Assembly: GCF_016026235.1 (NCBI RefSeq)
Contig: NZ_CP065613.1
DNA length: 64,000 nt
From: Escherichia coli
GTDB taxonomy: Bacteria > Pseudomonadota > Gammaproteobacteria > Enterobacterales > Enterobacteriaceae
Reading direction: 5' to 3' (one strand)
Shown here: piece by piece, positions 17,420-59,073 of the stretch
How positions within the stretch are numbered: position 1 is the first letter of the stretch
How the letters are laid out: every line of letters starts with the position of its first letter
Made by a program: the position numbers and the translations under genes
The notes under the pieces: generated by a model
What the model saw: only the letters and a program-made list of their open reading frames with translations
Databases searched by the model: none
Told to the model about the DNA's origin: nothing

Positions 17420-18692
17420 ACCGACTCCTGATTCAAATGTATGATGGTATTCATTGAACAGAACAATGGATCCCCCACCGTTGCTGACCGCAAAACATTT
17501 ACGCGATTAATACTGCGCGTAATATAATTAAAAATCCAGCATTCTCAATCCATTACGAAATAAGATGGCATTACGGAATAGCCAGACTTTCTCGTGTTAA
17601 CGTCCGACAAAATGCGTCATTGACAGCGGTTTCTGTGGATTGACACATTTCATTCAGATAATGAATTAATGCTACTGCCGGAACAACCAGCAAACGGGCA
17701 TTGTGTTCTGAAATCCAGGCTATTGATTCAACGTCAGCGACAGATCTGCGCTGTAAAAGAACTTGTAAAACAACGTAATAGAATTATCCGGAATGGTGGC
17801 GACTATGCACTAGAACACCACAATTTCGCTCTCTCGGTAAGGCACTGTCACAGCATTCAACAGAATGTGACTTGCCAGATTTATTAGCGCCACCAGATGT
17901 TTAACCGGGTAACCACGACCCAGTCGGGGATATATTCCATCTTCTCGCTGACATCATCAAGAATAAAAAGGTTTATCACACTCAGAGCAACGTTCTTCAG
18001 CAGGCGGGATAATTCTTCAACATTTAAAAGATGTGTTATTAAAGGCATACAAACTGGACGTATTGTATTTTCTTTTGGTGGTTGACCTAAGGTAGCAGTT
18101 TATCCTGATGCGCTGAGATTTCTGTAATATCTACGTCAACATTCTCCTCGAATAGAAAATGCAGCCCCGGCAAGTGATTCACATTTTTTAACAAAACGTT
18201 GTTAGCGTGCCATTTTCAGAAGCTCTCCAAGAAAGCGAATTCTTTTCTCAAATTCTGCATTCTCAGACACAGCTTTCTACTCCATGGCAATGGCCCAAAT
18301 ACGAAGTTGCTCAGGATCATTAGTGGTGCTGAGAAGTTAAATAACCATGCGGAGTACCACTCGTCATCACGTATTTATATATCATGAAGCTATTGTTGTG
18401 TTTTGTACATCAGTAGATGTATTCTGATATACTCCTTTTGCTAGACATAACCTTTCACCTGCTTGCAAAGCTTCTGTGTTCTGACATTGCCAAATTGTTG
18501 CAATTCTGTATCCAGCCTTCTTTCAGTCATAGCTTCGGGCCGCGATAAGACTCACTGATCTGACCCTGATTCCTCTTGCAGACTTTATAGACCAATTAAA
18601 ATGCAGTTTCTGCAGGTCAACGTCTGACCATCATTGTCATCACTCTGGCCATTAGAGTAACCTTCTGCATTCATCCTTTTGTAAAAAGTTTA

Positions 18693-19335
18693 TAGACTGG
18701 CCCCCTGAATCTCCAGACAACCAATATCACTTAAATAAGTGATAGTCCTGATACAAGTTTTTAGAGTAGTCATTAGTGAACAGATAATTGTTAACTTAGA
18801 ACCAGTAAAATGCAAACGACGCACCACGCTGGGAAAATCGCTGCTATTCAGCAGAGTTTTGTACCGAGAATTGTGGCCAGCCACTTATTGCTCTCGCGTA
18901 AGCAGGTATCCCTATCGTTTACCAGTCCAGCACATCTTGTGGTCAGGCAGAAGAAGAGCAAACTGTTACTGGACTCACTGCATGCATGGTGGAGAAAAAT
19001 GCCACGCTATCCAAAAATCCAGACTGGGAGAATGGTTCAGCTGTGTACTGAATCAGTGGGGCGCACTCTGTTATTACAGTGTTGACGGTCAGGCGGAGGC
19101 AGACATAATGCCGCGGAAAAAGCCCTTTGTGCCATCTGTCTCGGAAATAAAAACTTTATGTTCTTCGGCGGCGAGCGCAGTGCACTGTTGTATGGGCTTA
19201 TCGGCACTTGCCTTCTGAACGACATTGATCCGGAAGCGTATCTGCGCCATATCCTGAGCGTACTGCCGGAATAACCTTCCAACCGTATTGATGAACTCCT
19301 GCCATGGAACGTAGCACTCACCAATAAATAAGCGT
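18693..19335 (+). mobile_element. Composite IS relic: IS2-type left end with decayed orfA, followed by the C-terminal fragment of an IS66-family TnpC
   Basis: 18693-18747 is identical to the first ~55 bp of the IS2 left end at 27064, then diverges. At 19150-19330 the translation KNFMFFGGERSALLYGLIGTCLLNDIDPEAYLRHILSVLPE ... DELLPWNVALTNK matches the conserved IS66 TnpC C-terminus. No intact ORF. Confidence 0.5.
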
Positions 19336-19360
19336 CAATACGGCACTCCGTTAACGCTGA

Positions 19361-20871
19361 TATGACTTTCCGTGTCAAACCGGAATCTCTAATTTTGACG
19401 ATTTTCTTTTTAGGTTTAATTCCCTGAGGGCGACGTAGCAGTAAATCCGACGGTGAATCACGCTGATATTCGCGGGTTGGATACCGCATTACAGAGGTCC
19501 GTCATATGAGCCTGCCACTTTCTTACGTCGCGAATCAGCTTTGTTCCGCCGTCGCCAAGCGCTAACGTGGGTTACTCTTGTACCGGGCTACGTCGCCTTC
19601 AGGGAACTGGTTATTCTCATTTTTTATTTGTGACATTGTGGTTGTTGTGCGACAGACATTGCTATTCGGCCCATATCCCAGATAAAACCCGCCAGCTCAC
19701 GTGCAACAGCAACAATTGTAATATTGACATTCTTTCCTTTGGCCTGAAGTTTTCGATACCTCTTACAAAGCCTGAGTTGAGCATCCCATGCTCTGTCAAT
19801 GACGGGGCGGGGTAAATTTTCCTGCCTTTTTGTATTGCCGGACTGATGCGTGCCGGATGACGGTAACTCCACGCTGCCTCGACCAATAGCTTTCTGGCAT
19901 AGCTGTTTCCGGCTTTGGTAATGCTGCCCTGATGTCTGCTTCCACCCGATGAATATTCTGATGGCGTGATACCAAACCATGACATCAGTTGTCGTGGATG
20001 TTCAAAACGGGTCAGATCACCCAGTTCAGAAATTAATCCAACCGCAGTAATAAACTGAATCCCTCGCATGGCTTGCAGCGCCTCTACTACCGGATACAGC
20101 CTCCATTCGGTAACGGCCTCCTTCAGGGCGGATTCCAGCCGTTCACATTGTGCCTGCCGGTCTTCTATTGTACGACGGTGTTCGTCAAAAGCTAATTGTC
20201 GCCAGGGACTTTCGAATGAGTATTTGCTGAGCCAGCGTCGGTGTGCAGGGCCCCAATCTGCTCGCCCGACATAATGGACCCCATGAACCAGAAGAAACGA
20301 TTTCAGACGTTGCCTTGCATGCCGTAAATCATCGCGGGCAGATGCCCATGCCCGGGCCAAATCCCGGAATGCCTCATCTTCAATGCCGGGTACGTAGACA
20401 GCAGAAAGATCTCCTGCACGCAGTGAACGCACAAGTCTGATGGCATCACGGCGATCGGTTTTAACCCGCTCCCCCGGTTTTTTCGGGATAAGTGAGGGGG
20501 CGCAGACCATGCAGTCAAAACCGGATTTCACCAGCCGACGATAAAGTCCATAACCACAGGGCCCCGCTTCATAAACGATACTGACCTGCGATGACTTTGA
20601 CCTGAGACGTTTACAAAGATTCTGAATATCAGTAGGTGATGTGCCAATTTTACCCATCAGTTCAACAGGTTCTGAATTGATAGCATAAGCGACAGTAATC
20701 GATTCTTTGTGAACATCTAACCCGACGTACAATGTGTTATTGTTGTTCATGCTGGCCTCCGTGGTGGAAATACCGGGGTGTAGCAACAGCTCACCCATGC
20801 GGCTCTGACAACGATGTTAACCCGCGTTAAATATCCCACGTTGGCCAGCATCTGTCTCACGGAAAGTCATA
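19361..20871 (-). mobile_element. IS110/IS1111-family insertion sequence (about 1.5 kb) bounded by 14-bp inverted repeats
   Basis: Perfect inverted repeat TATGACTTTCCGTG at 19361-19374 and its reverse complement CACGGAAAGTCATA at 20858-20871 enclose a single transposase gene plus about 290 bp of non-coding sequence on its 3' side. Confidence 0.6.
19662..20750 (-). CDS. IS110-family (DEDD-type) transposase/recombinase
   Basis: Product MNNNNTLYVGLDVHKESI... has the N-terminal DEDD/RuvC-like domain and the C-terminal transposase_20-type domain (…FGITPSEYSSGGSRHQGSITKAGNSYARKLLVEAAW…). Confidence 0.8.
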   Translation of the reverse strand: MNNNNTLYVGLDVHKESITVAYAINSEPVELMGKIGTSPTDIQNLCKRLRSKSSQVSIVYEAGPCGYGLYRRLVKSGFDCMVCAPSLIPKKPGERVKTDRRDAIRLVRSLRAGDLSAVYVPGIEDEAFRDLARAWASARDDLRHARQRLKSFLLVHGVHYVGRADWGPAHRRWLSKYSFESPWRQLAFDEHRRTIEDRQAQCERLESALKEAVTEWRLYPVVEALQAMRGIQFITAVGLISELGDLTRFEHPRQLMSWFGITPSEYSSGGSRHQGSITKAGNSYARKLLVEAAWSYRHPARISPAIQKGRKIYPAPSLTEHGMLNSGFVRGIENFRPKERMSILQLLLLHVSWRVLSGIWAE

Positions 20872-23999: not shown

Positions 24000-25034
24000 A
24001 TGAAAGATTATCTACAAACTGTGACGGGCCCCGTCGCCCGTGAAGATATGGGGCTAACACTTCCTCATGAACATCTGTTCAACGATCTTTCCTCTGTTGT
24101 GGATGCTCCTTGCTATCCTTTTTCACAACGGCTTGTTGATAAAAAAGTCACGGCAGAAATCCAGTGGGCATTAAAACACGATCCTTATTGCTGCGCTGAT
24201 AATATGGACCGCAAACCTATTGAAGATGTGATCTTCGAAATTAATAACTTTATCTCGCTCGGTGGTCGCACCATTGTTGATGCCACAGGGTCTGAGTCTA
24301 TCGGACGAGATGCGCAGGCATTACGAGAAGTCGCATTAAAAACAGGTCTGAATATTGTTGCTTCCTCCGGTCCCTACCTGGAAAAATTTGAAAGCCAGAG
24401 AATTCATAAAACGGTTGATGAACTGGCGACAACGATCGATAAAGAATTGAATCAAGGGATTGGCGATACGGATATTCGTGCCGGAATGATCGGTGAAATA
24501 GGTGTTTCACCGACATTTACCGAAGCCGAGCATAACAGCTTGCGGGCTGCCTCGCTGGCACAGATTAACAATCCTCATGTGGCGATGAATATTCACATGC
24601 CGGGCTGGCTTCGTCGCGGTGATGAAGTACTCGACATTGTGTTAGGTGAAATGGGCGTCTCGCCAAATAAAGTCTCTCTCGCACACTCGGATCCGTCAGG
24701 AAAAGACGTGGCGTATCAGCGGAAAATGCTTGATAGAGGTGTCTGGCTGGAATTCGACATGATTGGCCTAGACATTACCTTCCCGAAAGAGGGAATAGCG
24801 CCAGGGGTGCAGGAGACTGCCGATGCCGTCGCTCATCTCATTGAGTTGGGATACGCCGATCAGCTTGTTCTCAGCCACGATGTCTTCCTTAAACAAATGT
24901 GGGCTAAAAATGGCGGTAATGGCTGGGGATTTGTTCCAGATGTTTTTCTGGCCTATCTGGCGGAGCGCGGCGTCGATAAAACGATCCTCAAAAAACTCTG
25001 TATCGATAATCCCGGACGATTATTGACCGCATAA
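24000..25034 (+). CDS. Phosphotriesterase-family (PTE/Php-like) metal-dependent hydrolase
   Basis: 344-aa product with the N-terminal metal-binding motif TLPHEHL and overall amidohydrolase/PTE layout. Confidence 0.75.
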   Translation: MKDYLQTVTGPVAREDMGLTLPHEHLFNDLSSVVDAPCYPFSQRLVDKKVTAEIQWALKHDPYCCADNMDRKPIEDVIFEINNFISLGGRTIVDATGSESIGRDAQALREVALKTGLNIVASSGPYLEKFESQRIHKTVDELATTIDKELNQGIGDTDIRAGMIGEIGVSPTFTEAEHNSLRAASLAQINNPHVAMNIHMPGWLRRGDEVLDIVLGEMGVSPNKVSLAHSDPSGKDVAYQRKMLDRGVWLEFDMIGLDITFPKEGIAPGVQETADAVAHLIELGYADQLVLSHDVFLKQMWAKNGGNGWGFVPDVFLAYLAERGVDKTILKKLCIDNPGRLLTA

Positions 25035-31879: not shown

Positions 31880-32848
<969 letters not shown>

Positions 32849-41009: not shown

Positions 41010-41060
41010 TAAAACGATCGATAAAACAGGTATCGATCGTTGATATCGATCGTTTATAGT
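41010..41060 (+). promoter_or_regulatory. flu (agn43) phase-variation switch: three GATC Dam sites in the OxyR-binding region
   Basis: GATC at 41016, 41035 and 41048, clustered about 220-250 bp upstream of the flu start codon, as described for the agn43 regulatory region. Confidence 0.6.
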
Positions 41061-43251
41061 GGTTAATGGCCTGCGAAAAGGCAGCTGAATCTCTTCATCA
41101 TGCAGAACGGAATTGCACACAACGGACTGATACTTCTCTGGCGGATGAGAGAGGGGAAGCATTTATGTCCGGGAAAAACCACTTTATCTGACCATGCTGT
41201 TTTGTACCTGCCGGTATCCACATTTGTGGGTACCGGCTTTTTTATTCACCCTCTGTAAGGAAAAGCTGATGAAACGACATCTGAACACCAGCTACAGGCT
41301 GGTATGGAATCACATTACGGGCACCCTGGTGGTGGCTTCCGAACTGGCGCGCTCACGGGGAAAACGCACCGGTGTGGCGGTTGCGCTGTCTCTTGCTGCT
41401 GTCACGTCAGTCCCGGTACTGGCTGCTGACACGGTCGTACAGGCGGGAGAAACCGTGAGCGGCGGAACACTGACAAATCATGACAACCAGATTGTCTTCG
41501 GTACGGCCAACGGAATGACCATCAGTACCGGTCTGGAGTATGGGCCGGATAACGAGGCCAATACCGGCGGACAATGGATACAAAATGGCGGTATCGCCAA
41601 CAACACTACTGTCACCGGTGGTGGTCTTCAGAGAGTGAATGCTGGAGGAAGCGTTTCAGACACGGTTATCAGTGCCGGAGGCGGACAGAGCCTTCAGGGG
41701 CAGGCAGTGAACACCACTCTGAACGGCGGTGAGCAGTGGGTACATGAAGGCGGGATTGCAACGGTTACCGTCATTAATGAGAAGGGCTGGCAGGCCGTCA
41801 AATCCGGCGCAATGGCAACCGACACGGTTGTGAATACCGGCGCGGAAGGGGGACCGGATGCAGAAAATGGTGATACCGGGCAGACCGTCTACGGAGATGC
41901 CGTACGCACCACCATCAATAAAAATGGTCGTCAGATTGTGGCTGCTGAAGGAACGGCAAATACCACTGTGGTTTATGCCGGCGGCGACCAGACTGTACAT
42001 GGTCACGCACTGGATACCACGCTGAATGGGGGGTACCAGTATGTGCACAACGGCGGTACGGCGTCTGGCACTGTTGTAAACAGTGACGGCTGGCAGATTA
42101 TCAAGGAAGGTGGTCTGGCGGATTTCACCACCGTTAACCAGAAAGGCAAACTGCAGGTGAACGCCGGTGGTACCGCCACACATGTCACCCTGAAACAGGG
42201 TGGAGCACTGGTTACCAGTACTGCGGCAACGGTTCTTGGCAGCAACCGTTTGGGCAATTTCACGGTGGAAAACGGTAAGGCTGACGGCGTTGTTCTGGAG
42301 TCCGGCGGTCGCCTAGATGTACTGGAAGGCCATTCAGCGCAGAAAACACGGGTGGATGACGGCGGAACCCTGGCAGTGTCTGCCGGTGGTAAGGCAACAG
42401 GTGTCACCATGACATCCGGTGGTGCCCTGATTGCAGACAGTGGTGCCACTGTTGAGGGGACCAATGCCAGCGGTAAGTTCAGTATTGATGGCATATCCGG
42501 TCAGGCCAGCGGCCTGCTGCTGGAAAATGGCGGCAGCTTTACGGTTAATGCCGGGGGACAGGCCAGCAACACCACTGTCGGACATCGTGGAACACTGATG
42601 CTGGCTGCCGGGGGAAGTCTGAGTGGCAGAACACAGCTCAGTAAAGGCGCCAGCATGGTACTGAATGGTGATGTGGTCAGTACCGGCGATATTGTTAACG
42701 CAGGGGAGATTTACTTTGACAATCAGACAACACCGGATGCCGTACTGAGCCGTGCTGTTGCAAAAGGCAACGCCCCGGTAACGTTCCATAAACTGACAAC
42801 CAGTAACCTCACCGGTCAGGGTGGCACCATCAATATGCGTGTTCGCCTTGATGGCAGCAATGCCTCTGACCAGCTGGTGATTAATGGTGGTCAGGCAACC
42901 GGCAAAACCTGGCTTGCGTTTACAAATGTCGGAAACAGCAACCTCGGGGTGGCAACCACCGGACAGGGTATCCGGGTTGTGGATGCACAGAATGGCGCCA
43001 CCACAGAAGAAGGTGCGTTTGCCCTGAGTCGCCCGCTTCAGGCCGGCGCCTTTAACTACACCCTGAACCGTGACAGCGATGAAGACTGGTACCTGCGCAG
43101 TGAAAATGCTTATCGTGCTGAAGTCCCCCTGTATACATCCATGTTGACACAGGCAATGGACTATGATGCGTATTACCGTGAAGGAGATCGGTGAGTAACA
43201 TCGATGGAGATCGGTTCGTGTCACTTTCACAGAACCGTTTTTAAATTACCT

Positions 43252-44001
43252 TCACTGATCTCCTTCGGTCAACGGAGATTGTATTTTCCGCATTGATTCT
43301 CCTTTAAGTTCAATCTTGATACTGCCATGAACCAGTCGATCTAGGATGGCATCCGCATGTGTGGAGTCTCCGATCATTTTGTACCAGTTTTCCACCGGCA
43401 ACTGGCTCACTACGATGATTGAGCCTCGTTGGTACATCAGATCCACTATTTCCAGCAGGTCGCTACGCTGTTCTGATGAGAGAGGTTCCAGCCCCCAGTC
43501 ATCCAGAAGCAGCAGATCGCTATTATTCAGCCTAGTCAAAAGTTTGCTGTATCTTCCATCAGCATGCCCCTGATAGCACTGTTCCATCAGCGCTTTAAGG
43601 CGATAATAGTAGACCTTGTATCCCTGTCGGCAGGCATTATGACCAAGTGCACATGCCAGGAACGTTTTACCGCTGCCGGTGGCCCCGGTCAGTAAAATAT
43701 TTTGTTTCAGGGTTAACCAGTTTCCCTGACTGAGTGAACGGATGAGGGCCCTGTCCAGCCCTCTATTGTTACGATAATCCAGCTTTGATAACTCAGCATT
43801 AAGTCTGAACCGTGCATGTTTGATCAGACGCTCTGCCTTCCTGTTTTCACGGCAGGTTAGTTCTTCTGCTGTCAGTAATGACAGGCGTTCTTCGAAGCCC
43901 AGCTCCTGGTATGTGCCCGGCTGAGCAAGTTGCTTTTTAAGCGCATCACGGAAGCCGGTGAGTTTAAGTGCGGTCAGTTGTTCGTAAAGATGATTCATCA
44001 T
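43252..44001 (-). CDS. istB: IS21-family helper ATPase IstB
   Basis: Walker A GATGSGKT; 249 aa. Confidence 0.8.
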   Translation of the reverse strand: MMNHLYEQLTALKLTGFRDALKKQLAQPGTYQELGFEERLSLLTAEELTCRENRKAERLIKHARFRLNAELSKLDYRNNRGLDRALIRSLSQGNWLTLKQNILLTGATGSGKTFLACALGHNACRQGYKVYYYRLKALMEQCYQGHADGRYSKLLTRLNNSDLLLLDDWGLEPLSSEQRSDLLEIVDLMYQRGSIIVVSQLPVENWYKMIGDSTHADAILDRLVHGSIKIELKGESMRKIQSPLTEGDQ

Positions 44002-44012
44002 TGGATCCCGTA

Positions 44013-45533
44013 TCAGTGGTAATACTCACTGCCGCGTACGTTTTCGTGTTCCATCGTGGATAACAGATCTGGTTTTGGATCCTGAACAGGTTGTTTATCC
44101 AGACCTTTTTCCAGGATCGATTTAATACCTGACAGACGCCATACCTTTGTTTTCAGAGCTCTTGCACATGCTGCATTAAGTCTGGCTTTACTGTATTTTT
44201 TATGAAGGTTCAGGAGTCCAAGGCAGAAGCGATAGCTTTGTTCCGGATGTGGACGAGAGTTCAGTATATGAAGCACATAACTATGAGTTTCACTGCCTAT
44301 GTGCCCCGCCCATTCCAGAAGACGCTCTGGCGTCCAGGTGGCATGCTGTCGATGAGCTTCAGGCATGTGCTCGTTGCGGGTACTGTAGCCATAAGTACGC
44401 TTGCGCGGGTGCACAGCAACCTCCTGCCCCTGATTGAAGAGTCTTACCAGTTCTCCGGAGATCCATGCTTCCAGTTGCTGGCCTAACAGCGAACATGGAA
44501 CCGAGTAGTAATGTTTGTCGATTTCCACGTGGTAATCGGCATGAACTCTGACTTTCTTCACCAGGGTGTAACTGTAACTGGCTTCAGGAAGAGGCTTCAG
44601 TGCGGGTTTATCAAGCTGGATGAAGAGTTCTGCACGTGAATAACCCAACTTCTGCATTATTTTGTTATTCAGTCTTTCCAGCAACTCCCGAATGCGCTGA
44701 TTAAGCGATGCAAGGCTGTAGAAGATCTCATGCCTGATTCGGGCCATGATCCAGCGTTCAACAACCTGAACGCCAACTTCAGCTTTGGCTTTATCTTTCG
44801 GTTTACGTGGCCGCGCAGGCAAAACTGCGACATTATAATGCTCAAGCATCTGCTGGTAGGTAGGGTTAACGTCAGGATCATACTTACATGCCCTGGATGT
44901 GGCGCTTTTCAGATTGTCCGGAACAACAAGTTCAGGAACGCCACCCAACCACTGGAAGCAGCGAACATGACTCATCACCCAGTCTTCAAGCTGCTGAGAC
45001 CAGGTGGCCTCTGCCCATGTGTAACTTGATGCCCCGAGAACAGCTACGATGACCTGAGCAGTTCTTATTTCTCCGGTCTCAGGGTCGGTAACGCCAACGG
45101 TAGGTCCACAGTAATCAACGAAAAGTTTTTCGCCAGCTTTATGTACCTGACGCATTGATGGTGAAGTGGTTTTGAGCCATTCACGGTACATCCGGCAGTA
45201 ATGGTTATAGCTGTAAAAACCGCCTGGATTACGCTCACAGTATTCTTCCCAGAGTAGCTGCAGCGTCACGCATTTATTACGCAGTTCCCAGTGTACTGTA
45301 GCCCAGTCAGGCAGAGAGTGCTTCTTCATCTTAACCTGGGTCTGAAGGAACGCATGTTTTAGTTTTGTATCATCCCATCCTGTAGGTAAGGGCCACTGCT
45401 TTATGCCAAGTTGAGCCGCCCGATTAGCATATCTGGATACAACGGAAGGGGAGATTGCAAGACTACGACCAATTTGTCGATGGCTGAGTCCAACACCGTA
45501 TTTAAGCCTAAGAATTTCTTTAAGTTTTCTCAT
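44013..45533 (-). CDS. istA: IS21-family transposase IstA
   Basis: HTH plus DDE domain; about 50% similar to the IstA of copy 1. Confidence 0.8.
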   Translation of the reverse strand: MRKLKEILRLKYGVGLSHRQIGRSLAISPSVVSRYANRAAQLGIKQWPLPTGWDDTKLKHAFLQTQVKMKKHSLPDWATVHWELRNKCVTLQLLWEEYCERNPGGFYSYNHYCRMYREWLKTTSPSMRQVHKAGEKLFVDYCGPTVGVTDPETGEIRTAQVIVAVLGASSYTWAEATWSQQLEDWVMSHVRCFQWLGGVPELVVPDNLKSATSRACKYDPDVNPTYQQMLEHYNVAVLPARPRKPKDKAKAEVGVQVVERWIMARIRHEIFYSLASLNQRIRELLERLNNKIMQKLGYSRAELFIQLDKPALKPLPEASYSYTLVKKVRVHADYHVEIDKHYYSVPCSLLGQQLEAWISGELVRLFNQGQEVAVHPRKRTYGYSTRNEHMPEAHRQHATWTPERLLEWAGHIGSETHSYVLHILNSRPHPEQSYRFCLGLLNLHKKYSKARLNAACARALKTKVWRLSGIKSILEKGLDKQPVQDPKPDLLSTMEHENVRGSEYYH

Positions 45534-46724
45534 AGAAATTGGAACTGTTGGCATAGGTATCCTTTACCGGAATGGCAAAAGATACAGATCAACACACCTG
45601 TGAAGTTCCAATAACATTGATGGAGATCACTGAATAACAAAATGAGTCAAAAGTGATCTCCATCGATGTTATTCAGCGATCTGTTCAAATGTTATTACCC
45701 GATCTCGATGGAAGTTATTGAGTGATCTCCTTTCATGAAAATACGCACTATGACCGGATTCTGGCAGGCTCCCGCAGCCATCAGACCGGTGTAAACGGTG
45801 AAAATAACAGCGTCCGTCTCAGCATTCAGGGCGGTCATCTCGGTCACGATAACAACGGCGGTATTGCCCGTGGAGCCACGCCGGAAAGCAGCGGCAGCTA
45901 TGGCTTCGTCCGTCTGGAGGGTGACCTGCTGAGAACAGAGGTTGCCGGTATGTCTCTGACGACAGGGGTGTATGGTGCCGCAGGCCATTCTTCCGTTGAT
46001 GTTAAGGATGATGACGGTTCCCGCGCCGGCACGGTCCGGGATGATGCCGGCAGCCTGGGCGGATACCTGAATCTGACACACACGTCCTCCGGCCTGTGGG
46101 CTGACATTGTGGCACAGGGAACCCGCCACAGCATGAAAGCGTCATCGGACAATAACGACTTCCGCGCCCGGGGCTGGGGCTGGCTGGGCTCACTGGAAAC
46201 CGGTCTGCCCTTCAGTATCACTGACAACCTGATGCTGGAGCCACAACTGCAGTACACCTGGCAGGGGCTCTCCCTGGATGACGGCCAGGATAACGCCGGT
46301 TATGTGAAGTTCGGGCATGGCAGTACACAACATGTGCGTGCCGGTTTCCGTCTGGGCAGCCACAACGATATGACCTTTGGTGAAGGCACCTCATCCCGTG
46401 ACACCCTGCGCGACAGTACAAAACACGGTGTGAGTGAACTGCCTGTGAACTGGTGGGTACAGCCTTCTGTTATCCGCACTTTCAGCTCCCGGGGTGACAT
46501 GAGCATGGGTACAGCCGCCGCCGGCAGTAACATGACGTTCTCACCGTCCCGGAATGGCACGTCACTGGACCTGCAGGCCGGACTGGAAGCCCGTGTCCGG
46601 GAAAATATCACCCTGGGCGTTCAGGCCGGTTATGCCCACAGCGTCAGCGGCAGCAGCGCTGAAGGTTATAACGGTCAGGCCACGCTGAATGTGACTTTCT
46701 GATAATCAGGTCACTCTCCTTCAG

Positions 46725-49772: not shown

Positions 49773-49861
49773 ACCACCAGAATAACCTTCTGCTCCGGCC
49801 TGGTGTTTTCACCACGCCACTGTCCCATTTTTTATCTCTGCATATCAGGAAAATCTTCAGT

Positions 49862-50239
49862 ATGAAAACATTACCCGACACGCATGTACGGGAGGTATCG
49901 TGCTGCCCGTCTCTCGTCACCATCTGGCAGACACTGCTCACCCGACTGCTGGACCAGCACTACGGCCTTACGCTGAATGACACACCGTTCGCTGATGAAC
50001 GTGTGATTGAACAGCATATTGAGGCAGGCATTTCACTGTGTGACGCGGTGAACTTTCTCGTTGTAAAATACGCGCTGGTACGTACCGACCAGTCGGGATT
50101 CAGCGCCTGTACCCACTCTCAGTTAATAAACAGCATCGATATCCTCCGAGCTCGCCGGGCAACAGGCCTGATGACCCGCGACAATTACAGAACGGTAAAT
50201 AACATTACCCTGGGGAAGCATCCGGAGGCGAAACGATGA
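49862..50239 (+). CDS. cbtA: Type IV toxin CbtA (YeeV), cytoskeleton-targeting
   Basis: 125-aa product MKTLPDTHVREVSCCPSLVTIWQTLLTRLLDQHYGLTLNDTPF... Confidence 0.85.
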   Translation: MKTLPDTHVREVSCCPSLVTIWQTLLTRLLDQHYGLTLNDTPFADERVIEQHIEAGISLCDAVNFLVVKYALVRTDQSGFSACTHSQLINSIDILRARRATGLMTRDNYRTVNNITLGKHPEAKR

Positions 50240-50439
50240 AACTGGCCCTGACGCTGGAAGCCGACAGCGTTAACGTGCAGGCGCTGAACATGGGGCGCAT
50301 TGTCGTTGACGTCGATGGTGTTAATCTCGCTGAACTGATTAACAAGGTCGCTGAAAACGGTGATTCACTCCGCGTGGTGGATGAACGTGACTCTACCGAA
50401 ACACCGGCAACTTATGCCAGCCCTCACCAGTTGCTGTAA
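50236..50439 (+). CDS. yeeW: Small CP4-type protein YeeW
   Basis: 67-aa ORF overlapping the cbtA stop by 4 nt (ATGA). Confidence 0.7.
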   Translation: MKLALTLEADSVNVQALNMGRIVVDVDGVNLAELINKVAENGDSLRVVDERDSTETPATYASPHQLL

Positions 50440-50713
50440 GACAATGCAGTGATACAGGGTATAGTGCCATTAACCACAGAAACAGCACTGTTGTCCTGTA
50501 TTAAGCAGGCAAGAGAAGATGTCCTTACCCTGCGCCATCTGCAGCTTCTGCACCAGAACCAGTGAATCTCACTCAACAGGCTTCATTTCCCCTGACGCCA
50601 GCCTGAATACAGCTGGCGTTTTCATTTATAAACAGAAAGGAAAACCGATAATAATGGAATGGACGCCCCTACCATGAAGCAACGGTAGGATATTACTGAT
50701 AAACCTTCCAGTG

Positions 50714-51752
50714 GAGGTGCGTTATGGCCGTTTTAACGATTAGCATTGACCTGACAAAAAATGAATTCCAAATCCACGGTCTGGGTAGGAACAGAAAAAT
50801 CTAAGCTCAGAAAACGGATTAAACGTTCCCTGATGCCCGTATTCTTCGCGAATATGTCTTCCTGTCGGATTGGGATGGAGGTCTGCGCCGGAGCGCGTCA
50901 TTAGTGAGAATGCTGTCTACTTAGGGGCATAATGTCAGACTAATGCCCGCGATTTGTAAAGCCATATGTGAAAACAAACAAGAATGATATGGCTGCTGCC
51001 GAGGCCATCTGTGAAGCCGTTACCCGACCTAATATGCGGTTTGTCAGCATCAAGACGCCTGAGCAGTAGTCATTACTGTCTTTTCATCGTGCCCAAACGG
51101 GATTTGTTAAATCAAGGACTGCGCAGATAAACCAGATCAGAGGATTACTGGCTGAATTTGGCATCGTTCTCCCGCCCGACATTGTAGCATTCAGTCGTCA
51201 TGTCCCTGCCCTGCTTGAAGACGCGGAAAACTGTTTAACAATGCCGTTCAGACAGCTGTCGTCCTATCTCTAATGAAAATGTGTAACAACTGAGCGTACA
51301 CATTGAAACCATAGAAGCCGTGAGCAACGAACACGTCGGGAACGACGAACTGTGCAGGAAAATTGCCACCATTTCGGGGATTGCTATTCTTACCACCACT
51401 GCAATTGTCAGCACCGGGTAGTATCGGCTTCAAAAACCGGCGTCAGCTTGCTGCATGGCTTGGACTGGTTCCCCGACAGTGCTTCAGCGTAGGTAAAAAC
51501 ACGCTGGGGTCTATCAGTAAACAGGACGATGTCTATATCAGAACGCTACTGTTCCATGGTGCGAAGACAGTGTCAAACGCCAGAAAGGGCAGACAGGTCC
51601 AGGAAAGTTGGCTGGGCAGACCAGTCTCGCGGCGGAATAAAAATGTTGCCACCGTAGCGCTGAACAACAAAAATGCCAGAGTGCTCTGGGTATTGCTAAC
51701 CAACGATAAAGAGATTTCACCAGAAGAAGTGATGGTAGCTGCATATATGTAA
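50714..51752 (+). pseudogene. Degraded IS110-family transposase (yoeD-like remnant)
   Basis: N-terminal stub MAVLTISIDLTKNEFQIHGLG and C-terminal segment ...RQLAAWLGLVPRQCFSVGKNTLGSISKQDDVYIRTLLFHGAKTV..., separated by frameshifts and stops. Confidence 0.6.
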
Positions 51753-52189
51753 ATGAAACTACTTCTGTCTGTTGAAAAATAAAACCAACCTACTGATTGC
51801 TAAGGATAAACAAGTATTAAAGGCCAGACTGATAAGACCGCGACTAAGTGAACCTGTATCTGACATTGCATAGCTTCGCTAATGTGTCAATCATGATTAG
51901 GACTAAATCTGTGAATTCCTTTAGGAAGCACGGACACAGGCCAATCTGAGTCCATATGTATGATTGGAATCTTACACAGATGACTTTTTGACACGGGGAC
52001 TTGGCAAACAGGGGCGACCATGTATGTCAGATATGACAATCTCACTTCCGAAAGAAGTCAACGGGCACGTTATCTGTTCAACCAGAATCCGACACATTCT
52101 GGCTATACGAAAGAGCATACTTATGCAAATCTATATGCTTTTCCGGCAACAAGCAGGAATCTCAGCGCTGAGGCAGGAATTAGAGGTAA

Positions 52190-52389
52190 AAACGCCCTAC
52201 CGGGCCATGAATCACCCGGTCATTGGAGTAGTAACCAAAGCAGATTTAGCCAGCATGGAACACATATCTTTGGTGAAATGTTGGTTACGGGAAGCTGGAG
52301 CGCACAACGTGTTAGTAACCAGTGCGGTTAATAACAATGGAGTTACAGAACTTTTTGCCTTGCTGCATACAGAAGAAGGCTGTTGCTAA
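52190..52389 (+). pseudogene. Remnant resembling the C-terminus of a EutP/PduV-type GTPase (yoeF-like)
   Basis: Translation PVIGVVTKADLASMEHISLVKCWLREAGAHNVLVTSAVNNNGVTELFAL; no intact N-terminal part. Confidence 0.35.
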
Positions 52390-52489
52390 TTTCGATAGGT
52401 TCTCAGATGAGAATGATGACGGTGATACACAGATAAGAATCAATGAGCAATGAGGGTTGCCGGGCAACCCTCATTGAATAAAACAGGAA

Positions 52490-52819
52490 TTACTTCGCTT
52501 CGCCGTTTTTCATTTCGCCCATAGCTTTCAGCTTTTTGGAGATATCGCGGCGTTCTTTGGAGAGCTCGGCATTTTTGATGATGTAATCGTCAACGCGATC
52601 TTCATAGTCACCTTTCATGCTGGCGATGATGCCCTGGATTGCTTCAACGCTCATCCCGGGCTTGATGTAATCGCTCAGGTTGTCCAGCAACAGGACGCGC
52701 TTCTGGTTGTCACGGATCTTTTTCTCAACGTCCTGAATTTCACGTTGCAGTTTGTTCTTACGACGGAACAGACGAACAAATTCCAGTACGTCCTGGAATG
52801 AAGGCTTGGTAGTTTCCAT
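52490..52819 (-). CDS. yeeX: UPF0265 / DUF496 protein
   Basis: 109-aa product [30 protein letters not shown]... Confidence 0.85.
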
Positions 52820-52990
52820 TTTTATACCCCTGATAATGTGAGAGTCGGATTCGTTTAAGCAACCGCTATTCGTTAGGGCCAACATTACTCATAGCTGCCG
52901 CAGATGACAATGCTTTTATCCCTTTTCACTATCATACCCTTTATCCTTGCTGAATCGAAGCAGCAGCAAGATGATTCTGAAGTTCAGGAA

Positions 52991-56213: not shown

Positions 56214-57641
56214 ATGATGAATGACGGTAAGCAACAATCTACCTTTTTGTTTCACGATTACGAAACCTTTGGAACGCACCCCGCGTTAGATCGCCCTGCA
56301 CAGTTCGCAGCCATTCGCACTGATAACGAATTCAATGTCATCGGCGAACCCGAAGTCTTTTACTGCAAGCCCGCGGATGACTATTTACCCCAGCCTGGAG
56401 CAGTATTAATTACCGGTATTACCCCGCAGGAGGCACGGGCGAAAGGAGAAAACGAAGCCGCGTTTGCCGCCCGTATTCACTCGCTTTTTACCGTACCGAA
56501 GACCTGTATTCTGGGCTACAACAATGTGCGTTTCGACGACGAAGTCACACGCAACGTTTTTTATCGTAATTTCTACGATCCTTACGCCTGGAGCTGGCAG
56601 CATGATAACTCGCGCTGGGATTTACTGGATGTTATGCGTGCCTGTTATGCCCTGCGCCCGGAAGGAATAAACTGGCCTGAAAATGATGACGGTCTACCGA
56701 GCTTTCGCCTTGAGCATTTAACCAAAGCGAATGGCATTGAACATAGCAACGCCCACGATGCGATGGCTGATGTGTACGCCACTATTGCGATGGCGAAACT
56801 GGTAAAAACGCGTCAGCCACGCCTGTTTGATTATCTCTTTACCCATCGTAATAAACACAAACTGATGGCGTTGATTGATGTTCCGCAGATGAAACCCCTG
56901 GTTCACGTTTCCGGAATGTTTGGGGCATGGCGCGGCAATACCAGCTGGGTGGCACCGCTGGCGTGGCATCCTGAAAATCGCAATGCCGTAATTATGGTGG
57001 ATTTGGCAGGAGACATTTCGCCATTACTGGAGCTGGATAGCGACACATTGCGCGAGCGTTTATATACCGCAAAAGCCGATCTTGGCGATAACGCCGCCGT
57101 TCCGGTTAAGCTGGTGCATATCAATAAATGTCCGGTACTGGCCCAGGCGAATACGCTACGCCCGGAAGATGCCGACCGACTGGGAATTAATCGTCAGCAT
57201 TGCCTCGATAACCTAAAAATTCTGCGTGAAAATCCGCAAGTGCGTGAAAAAGTGGTGGCGATATTCGCGGAAGCCGAACCGTTTACGCCTTCAGATAACG
57301 TGGATGCACAGCTTTATAATGGCTTTTTCAGTGACGCCGATCGTGCAGCAATGAAAATTGTGCTGGAAACCGAGCCGCGTAATTTACCGGCACTGGATAT
57401 CACTTTTGTTGATAAACGAATTGAAAAACTGTTGTTCAATTATCGAGCGCGCAACTTCCCGGGGACGCTGGATTATGCCGAGCAGCAACGCTGGCTGGAG
57501 CACCGCCGCCAGGTCTTCACGCCAGAGTTTTTGCAGGTCTACGCTGATGAATTGCAGATGCTGGCACAACAGTATGCCGATGACAAAGAGAAAGTGGCGC
57601 TGTTAAAAGCGCTTTGGCAGTACGCGGAAGAGATCGTCTGA
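56214..57641 (+). CDS. sbcB: Exodeoxyribonuclease I
   Basis: 475-aa product from MMNDGKQQSTFLFHDYETFGTHPALDRPAQFAAIR (DnaQ-like exonuclease motif). Confidence 0.9.
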   Translation: MMNDGKQQSTFLFHDYETFGTHPALDRPAQFAAIRTDNEFNVIGEPEVFYCKPADDYLPQPGAVLITGITPQEARAKGENEAAFAARIHSLFTVPKTCILGYNNVRFDDEVTRNVFYRNFYDPYAWSWQHDNSRWDLLDVMRACYALRPEGINWPENDDGLPSFRLEHLTKANGIEHSNAHDAMADVYATIAMAKLVKTRQPRLFDYLFTHRNKHKLMALIDVPQMKPLVHVSGMFGAWRGNTSWVAPLAWHPENRNAVIMVDLAGDISPLLELDSDTLRERLYTAKADLGDNAAVPVKLVHINKCPVLAQANTLRPEDADRLGINRQHCLDNLKILRENPQVREKVVAIFAEAEPFTPSDNVDAQLYNGFFSDADRAAMKIVLETEPRNLPALDITFVDKRIEKLLFNYRARNFPGTLDYAEQQRWLEHRRQVFTPEFLQVYADELQMLAQQYADDKEKVALLKALWQYAEEIV

Positions 57642-57644
57642 AAC

Positions 57645-57677
57645 AAAAAAGCCGGAGCGACAAACTCCGGCTTTTTG
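57645..57677. terminator. Bidirectional terminator between convergent sbcB and plaP
   Basis: Hairpin aaaaaagccggagcgacaaactccggcttttt; a second hairpin accggatgattatgtcatccggt follows at 57684-57706. Confidence 0.5.
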
Positions 57678-57714
57678 AGATTTACCGGATGATTATGTCA
57701 TCCGGTTTGTAAGA

Positions 57715-59073
57715 TTACGCTACGTCTTCGTACTGCGGAACCGGGTTACGGAAACTCTTGGTTACGCAAGCCAGATAAATCAGGCCGATAGCAGCCCAGA
57801 TCAGACCCAGAACCATTGAGCTTTCTTCCAGGTTAACCCACAGCGCACCAACGGTCAGCGCACCACACATCGGCAGGAACAGATACTGGAAGTGATCTTT
57901 CAGCGTCTTGTTACGCTTCTCACGGATCCAAAACTGCGAGATGACCGACAGGTTAACGAAGGTGAACGCCACCAACGCACCAAAGTTAATCAGCGCCGTA
58001 GCCATTACCAGGTCGAAGTTGATTGCCAGCAGGGCAATCGCGCCAACCAGGATGATGTTCATCGCCGGAGTACGCCATTTCGGGTGTACATAACCGAAGA
58101 AGCTTTTCGGGAACACGCCGTCACGACCCATTACGTACATCAGACGCGCAACGCCTGCGTGCGCCGCCATACCGGACGCCAGTACGGTAATGGTGGAGAA
58201 GATCAGCGCGCCAACCTGGAACGCTTTACCCGCCACGTACAGCATGATTTCAGGCTGTGACGCATCCGGATCTTTAAAGCGAGAGATATCCGGGAAGTAC
58301 AACTGCAGGAAGTAAGTTGCAAAGATGAAGATCATGCCGCCGATCAGCGCGGTCAGGAAAATCGCACGCGGGATCACGCGCTCTGCATCTTTGGTTTCTT
58401 CCGACAGGTTGCTGATGCCGTCAAAGCCGGTAAAGGAGAAGCACAGGATTGTCGCCCCGGTAATCATCGGGATAACATGCGCATCGCCAGACCAGAACGG
58501 ACGCGTGCTCGCCAGCGTACCAGCGCCTTCACCTTCAAATACGCCATAAACAACCATGCCCAGAATCACCGCGATCAGCACTACCTGCAACACGACGATT
58601 ACAGTGTTGAAGTTCGCTACGGATTTCAGACTACGCAGGTTAAAGGCGGTCATAAAGGCCACCAGCGCCACCACAAACATCCACGATGGAATGGAAGGCA
58701 CCAGAGCTTCAAAATAGATTTTCGCCAGCAGAATGTTGATCATCGGCGCGAACAGATAGTCGAGCAGAGAAGACCACCCCACCATAAAGCCGACAGTCGG
58801 GCTAATGGATTTCTGGGCGTAAGTGTATGCAGAGCCAGCAGAAGGATAGCGGCGAACCAGCTTCCCGTAGCTCAGAGCCGTAAACAGGATCGCAATCAAT
58901 GCGAACGCATAGGCTGTCGGCACATGACCATCCGTGAGGCCTGAAACGATACCAAATGTATCAAACAGCGTCATCGGCTGCATATAGGCTAGACCCATCA
59001 TTACAACCGGAACTAACGTAAGCGTTTTACGCAATTCCACGCGAGAGGTGTTTGGAGTAACGTTATGCGACAT
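57715..59073 (-). CDS. plaP: Putrescine importer (APC family)
   Basis: 452-aa 12-TM permease from [24 protein letters not shown]... Confidence 0.9.

Follow-up and report, generated by a model that had tools for sequence, protein, structure and literature searches.

The IS110-type remnant and the PduV tail at the right edge of the Escherichia coli cobU (CP4-44-type) island very probably arose through successive events at that edge. We analysed a 64,000-nucleotide stretch of the E. coli chromosome (RefSeq contig NZ_CP065613.1; hereafter the window), in which three tRNA-Asn genes, ldtA and cobTSU lie to the left of the island, and tmaR/yeeX (52490-52885, minus strand), yeeA, sbmC, dacD, sbcB, plaP and the his leader lie to the right of the junction (Table 1). 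cobU has been named as a site of islands in ExPEC (PMC7545054). The junction region (50440-52489) is matched in 5419 of 5426 complete E. coli genomes, with at least 80% query coverage in 531. The RefSeq annotation of the well-covered genomes has an "IS110 family transposase" pseudogene with frameshifts and, after it, an "EutP/PduV family microcompartment system protein". A first-pass annotation of the window had described this pair as remnants at the right island junction. Both are indeed gene remnants located there, but the boundary between island and core chromosome, 52206/52207, falls inside what that annotation took for the PduV fragment, the ORF called "EutP/PduV" by RefSeq in near-identical genomes. 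The junction is a case of ordinary genome decay, already annotated in public genomes.

Table 1 Features of the right island junction and the two other IS110-type genes of the island.
Feature	Position	Strand	Basis
ISSso6 transposase (gene A)	19624..20751	-	99.9% identity to FDAARGOS_943 copy
IS110-type gene with one in-frame stop (gene B)	31880..32848	+	Translation; Pfam domains on both halves; pseudogene in 39EVA
Truncated yeeW-like ORF, only DUF5983 N-terminal domain	50236..50439	+	Pfam PF25638 DUF5983_N, 100 bits; equivalent partial in 39EVA RefSeq
DUF957 gene remnant without N-terminal part	50473..50565	+	Partial DUF957 gene in annotation of near-identical genomes
Full-length IS110-family insertion sequence, IS1111-group architecture, ~1377 bp	~50650..52026	+	Termini aligned with independent copies
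IS left end, 74 nt	50650..50723	+	Includes subterminal inverted repeat IRL
IS110-family transposase pseudogene (gene C)	50724..51752	+	tblastn of intact homologues, segment translations, Pfam, NCBIfam
IS right end, 274 nt	51753..52026	+	Conserved block; holds putative guide and IRR
N-terminal 61 codons of island terminal gene (DUF4942-domain protein)	52024..52206	+	BLASTP, DNA alignment to L020
ATGAA microhomology at predicted deletion junction, island/core boundary	52207..52211	+	Three-way DNA alignment and paralogue sequence
pduV codons 88-147 and stop codon	52207..52389	+	Homology to NRG 857C, protein and DNA alignments
GC-rich inverted repeat between pduV and tmaR/yeeX	52448..52476	.	Core chromosome; self-inverted BLAST match

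The pduV tail and the island boundary

The ORF ending at 52389 resembles PduV/EutP in its last 60 codons. The Pfam PduV-EutP profile is matched only at positions 86-142 of 143 (46 bits versus a gathering score of 21), and the NCBIfam model TIGR02528 aligns over positions 86-141 with 41 bits versus 138.35, which falls short of a full-length match. Relative to full-length PduV, the ORF retains TKAD (G4) and the C-terminal part, while the P-loop GPSQCGKT (G1) and DTPGE (G3, DxxG) are absent. These partial matches bear out the first-pass description of the piece as the C-terminal fragment of a GTPase.

When the genome matches are listed by their spread along the query, one class of genomes aligns only from query position 1768, which corresponds to window position 52207. 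This class includes NRG 857C, where a full 147-aa PduV is encoded by the last gene of a complete pduA-V operon, directly against tmaR, with pocR, pduF, a cobalamin riboswitch and cobUST upstream of the operon. The homology between the window and NRG 857C starts exactly at 52207, at pduV nucleotide 262 (codon 88), with 99% identity, and continues through tmaR, yeeA and sbmC. At the protein level, 56 of the 60 residues 88-147 are identical to NRG 857C PduV. The tail differs from intact pduV by four non-synonymous substitutions and one synonymous one, numbers which are too small for a formal test of relaxed selection but would fit relaxed constraint. Across the complete E. coli genomes, the pduV 3′ end is found in 5419 of 5426 and the 5′ part in 816, 644 of them with coverage of at least 80%.

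On the left side, homology to NRG 857C stops at about 17715, some 300 bp past cobU. Because it stops there and resumes at 52207, the alignments place the island (17716-52206) where NRG 857C holds pocR-pdu. The boundary is thus set to the base, with the cobU/CP4-44 island sitting at the pdu operon's place in pdu-positive strains, a placement of use in pan-genome work and in studying pdu in adherent-invasive E. coli. Compared with PduV (PF10662 / TIGR02528), the last gene product of the pdu operon, the window holds orthologous residues 88-147, also next to tmaR. Unlike PduV, it has lost the first 87 codons including the P-loop, and a foreign N-terminus is fused to the rest. No pdu gene other than the pduV tail was found in the window, so the ORF does not lie in a microcompartment operon.

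The first-pass annotation had assigned the EutP/PduV fragment to a gene deleted in island erosion. This reading, in which the IS110 gene and the fragment are both leftover island genes and the junction results from erosion of the island itself, draws on the fact that both genes are clearly broken and lie at the island edge, where their neighbours (the DUF5983 gene, the DUF957 gene and the terminal gene) are truncated as well. We consider it very unlikely: the PduV part is collinear, at the 99% identity given above, with the chromosomal pduV-tmaR junction of pdu-positive E. coli, and paralogous CP4-type islands end with a DUF4942-domain protein gene and carry no PduV gene. The fragment is better described as codons 88-147 of the chromosomal pduV.

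Some further variation surrounds this locus. No pduW or pduX is annotated in pdu-positive NRG 857C, where the operon ends at pduV, and cbi genes are absent there between cobU and the cobalamin riboswitch. In NRG 857C, the left breakpoint (about 17420-17715) falls within a gene annotated as 'hypothetical protein' that lies between cobU and the cobalamin riboswitch/pocR and is possibly a remnant of the cbi operon. Another genome class keeps pduV from nucleotide 146 onward, a pattern that indicates an independent and different truncation at the same locus. The inverted repeat downstream of the pduV tail is probably a bidirectional terminator; it does not satisfy the T-run rule of our terminator scan, and the counts from the combined promoter and terminator scan were no different from those in shuffled sequence.

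A chimeric ORF at the proposed deletion junction

We searched E. coli genomes with a query joining the two flanks of the insertion sequence (IS; 50300-50649 and 52027-52206). Paralogous CP4-type islands match across the join at 82-84% identity and are annotated there with DUF5983, DUF957 and DUF4942 genes. In ESY001, the island end consists of cbtA, DUF5983, DUF957 and a gene for a 280-aa DUF4942-domain protein, followed by core genes. The product of 52024-52206 shows 56% amino acid identity to residues 1-59 of the 280-aa protein (BLASTP, E=5e-17), and the DNA is 75% identical to the paralogous island L020 from position 3943 onward. The ORF is thus EutP/PduV only in its second half: its first half is the N-terminus of the island's terminal gene. 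The DUF4942 domain itself (PF13708), at residues 87-275 of the paralogue, is absent from the window, which keeps residues 1-61. The DUF957 remnant nearby lacks about 85 bp that are present in the intact paralogue, the alignment to L020 skipping L020 positions 3692-3776.

At the junction between the two halves, the paralogue reads GGGCC-ATGAA-ACA, pduV reads GTCA-ATGAA-TCG and the window reads GGGCC-ATGAA-TCA. We infer from this three-way alignment that an in-frame deletion at the 5-nt microhomology made the 121-codon ORF (52024-52389). The DUF4942 domain is missing from this ORF, and so is the PduV P-loop, so that its product could not be a working NTPase.

RefSeq names the 121-aa product as a member of the EutP/PduV family, and a genuine small protein of this family would account for an open ORF with an ATG, annotated as WP_001282181.1 without a pseudogene flag, whose profile score exceeds the Pfam gathering score. 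The match is nevertheless confined to the end of the profile (positions 86-142 of 143) and far below the NCBIfam cut-off, the P-loop and the DTPG motif are absent, and the N-terminal half comes from an unrelated gene. In addition, a dead IS separates the ORF from any upstream operon, and K-12-like genomes keep only 60 of the 121 codons. We therefore regard a genuine EutP/PduV protein as highly improbable. The RefSeq label at this locus, which recurs in most E. coli genomes, marks a pseudogene chimera and is no evidence of microcompartment capacity.

With an open frame and 98-99% conservation among genomes, the chimeric ORF may be expressed. The right-end RNA region of the fossil IS shows the same conservation across hundreds of E. 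coli genomes. There is a slim chance, comparable to that of a genuine family member, that the ORF or the RNA has been kept for some function; if so, the products could be a domesticated small RNA, or a small protein that still has binding partners in the microcompartment or the cytoskeleton. It is likely that nothing at the right junction functions today.

A complete but decayed insertion sequence

The first-pass annotation reported a heavily degraded IS110-type transposase gene at the junction, with a start at 50714, which is 10 nt upstream of the transposase ATG. The degradation is evident in a three-frame translation, in which transposase pieces are spread over all three forward frames. Searching the window by tblastn with intact homologues (P0001, P0002 and P0005) yields four HSPs in three frames, with stops. 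The reading path of gene C requires at least five frame changes (near 50797, 50901, 50944, 51273 and 51420) and meets four in-frame stops: TAG at 50902-50904 (in the second segment, at the second frame change), TAG at 50922-50924, TAG at 51067-51069 and TAA at 51284-51286. Its stitched translation scores 36.2 bits versus a cut-off of 29 for PF01548 (N-terminal DEDD, RuvC-like), 54.6 versus 21.3 for PF02371 (C-terminal Transposase_20) and 248 versus 140 for NCBIfam NF033542. The closest intact relatives are found in Salmonella, Providencia and Photorhabdus, with 344-aa homologues matching at 75% (P0001, a contig from a sequencing-run assembly), 71% (Salmonella enterica) and 67% (Providencia stuartii, many copies). 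Gene C lacks the uninterrupted frame of these homologues that a functional IS110 transposase would have, and by this reading of its frames the element is functionally dead.

The element is complete in extent. Six independent Providencia copies share a common sequence that begins with TATAATGGAATGG 75 nt before the ATG and ends with GCGACCATGTATG about 270 nt past the stop codon, and identical ends occur in a Salmonella copy and in a 1379-bp contig that is the element itself. Both ends are present in the window together with their inverted repeats: IRL (50659-50669; ATGGACGCCCC) matches the reverse complement of IRR (52011-52021) at 10 of 11 positions. In the Providencia copies the inverted repeat is perfect at 11 of 11 positions (ATGGTCGCTCC / GGAGCGACCAT), as read by eye from the printed ends and not computed. 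The IS110 piece is therefore not the partial remnant it was first taken for. Two positions at which matches to NCTC strains break off, 50739 and 52004, were also considered as IS ends and rejected, as those strains carry insertions of ISEc12 and IS100 there.

The flanks of 12 copies display the common pattern ...TAT-G-YYAAAT, and the empty site without the IS in a paralogous island reads ACGAT-TAT-GTCTGAA. In the window, the IS sits on a TAT core that overlaps the ATG of the terminal gene, with the start codon regenerated at 52024-26. The IS thus shows the site-specific insertion at a conserved core that is expected of the IS1111 group, and its ends, short on the left (74 nt) and long on the right (274 nt), fit the layout of that group. 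Members such as ISEc11, IS4321 and IS5075 are RNA-guided DEDD/serine recombinase elements, and the window IS shares with them a two-domain transposase, subterminal inverted repeats, an extended right end past tnp and, putatively, an RNA segment that can pair with the target flank. It differs from them in that its transposase is dead and its predicted RNA structure is partly disrupted. In E. coli it also appears as a single copy fixed at one site, and PGAP assigns it no ISfinder name. About 770 E. coli genomes contain the IS body at no less than 95% identity, with a median of one place per genome, and all listed examples lie at this locus beside the PduV ORF. Among the E. coli matches listed, no intact near-identical copy was found elsewhere, the other matches being short and distant. 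On plasmid NZ_CP076275.1, an unannotated segment (123404-123806) is 78.5% identical to the transposase 3′ end and part of the right-end RNA region and may belong to a related element.

In the IS1111 group, the bridge RNA or seekRNA is encoded downstream of tnp (PMC12288879). The 274-nt right end of the window IS would be expected to encode such an RNA: the block is kept even in relatives at 55% protein identity, and RNAalifold predicts 70 pairs in it, 10 of them with compensatory changes. Eight predicted pairs are broken in the window copy versus 0-2 in close intact relatives. A 9-nt segment at 51858-51866 (ATCTGACAT) is the exact reverse complement of the junction and right flank at 52024-52032 (ATGTCAGAT). 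In eleven relatives, all of which carry ATTTAACAT and have flanks such as ATGTTAAAT, 8-9 of the 9 positions match. The two positions at which the window guide differs from its relatives are both matched by its own flank. This is as expected of RNA-guided target choice, and we regard the match as supportive rather than as proof of a putative guide because only six positions are free to vary. A search of Rfam with 50400-52600, at gathering and E<=1 thresholds, returned no bridge-RNA or other RNA family. In the fossil IS, the putative guide and its target covary, which makes it a natural example among IS1111-type elements of a mechanism that is already established.

The island contains two other IS110-type genes (Table 1), and the first-pass annotation considered the presence of three, one apparently intact and two decayed, to be notable. 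Three are indeed present, but the supposedly intact gene A is frameshifted. In FDAARGOS_943, the ISSso6 gene is intact (375 aa) and matches 13 places in the genome. In the window copy, one T is missing from a T6 run at 19826/19827, which shifts the frame of the last ~65 codons; either a true mutation or a sequencing error in the homopolymer could account for this. The pairwise comparison proposed in that annotation gives 22-27% protein identity over local stretches (E = 3e-11, 1e-6 and 0.05) and no DNA similarity, and blastn and tblastx self-comparison found no second copy of 50440-52489 within the window, the only match being a 45-aa, 40% tblastx match to element A. A single element that multiplied within the island, its copies decaying at different rates, would account for the two IS110-family Pfam domains found in all three genes. 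Given such low identity, and given that A is ISSso6, multi-copy in another genome, while the listed E. coli matches of C are all at one locus, we attach next to no probability to a common element. Three unrelated elements are unremarkable in an IS-rich island. The ORF at 24000-25034 was also considered as an IS110 gene and rejected, since it encodes a phosphotriesterase-family protein.

Proposed history and the K-12 form

The order of events at the right junction can be proposed from these comparisons. The ancestral chromosome would have carried cobTSU, pocR-pduF, pduA...pduV and tmaR (yeeX), the order still held by a minority of E. coli. In some lineages the pdu-positive state could in principle have been restored by recombination instead of being directly ancestral. 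A CP4-type island, ending in cbtA, DUF5983, DUF957 and the DUF4942-domain protein gene, would then have entered the interval. A deletion would have started within the terminal gene and run through the island's right end and the pdu operon to pduV codon 87, with the ATGAA join in frame. An IS1111-group element, presumably guided by its own right-end RNA, would have inserted at the TAT core over the start codon of the terminal gene, regenerating the ATG. The pdu-side deletion and the IS insertion could have occurred in either order. Without selection, the transposase gene would have gained its frameshifts (at least five) and its four stops, and the RNA region would have lost the eight predicted pairs.

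K-12-like genomes would have undergone a later event involving an IS66-family element, which removed 50824-52135 and gave rise to the yoeD and yoeF pseudogenes. In these genomes and in O157, the alignment covers 49800-50823 and 52136-52900, and the two blocks are separated by 159 bp of unrelated sequence. In the K-12 form, the 159 bp are a remnant of the C-terminal part of an IS66-family TnpC. The identification comes from 89% DNA identity to window 19203-19358, NCBIfam having returned nothing for K-12's 42-aa transposase fragment. This resemblance hints that an IS66-mediated rearrangement linked the two island ends. In the window, an IS66-family transposase remnant lies near the island's left end (18935-19358), and it is its 3′ part that resembles the K-12 fragment.

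We take K-12's pseudogene names yoeD and yoeF to apply to the two pieces left at this locus. yoeF is listed in the CP4-44 region (PMC11551758). A literature search on yoeD/yoeF found no paper describing the fusion of the terminal gene with pduV, and one y-ome list mentions yoeF. The right end of K-12 CP4-44, the cobU island of ExPEC, is at the same locus as the window and has the same terminal-gene/pduV junction, with cbtA and yeeW on the left and tmaR/yeeX, yeeA and sbmC on the right in both. Unlike K-12, the window retains the IS in full and the whole run of 61 N-terminal codons from the terminal gene. By this alignment, the window holds the older and longer form of the K-12 yoeD/yoeF region in the CP4-44/cobU island.

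Other differences and insertions were seen elsewhere in the window. At 57641-57715, plaP directly follows sbcB; tsuA/tsuB (yeeE/yeeD), present at this position in 39EVA, are absent in the window and in NRG 857C. Within the island, an Rfam IS102 (isrC-like) RNA match at 41014-41250 lies upstream of the Ag43 autotransporter gene, and at 43252-45554 the Ag43 gene is broken by the IS21-like ISEc12 (istA/istB).
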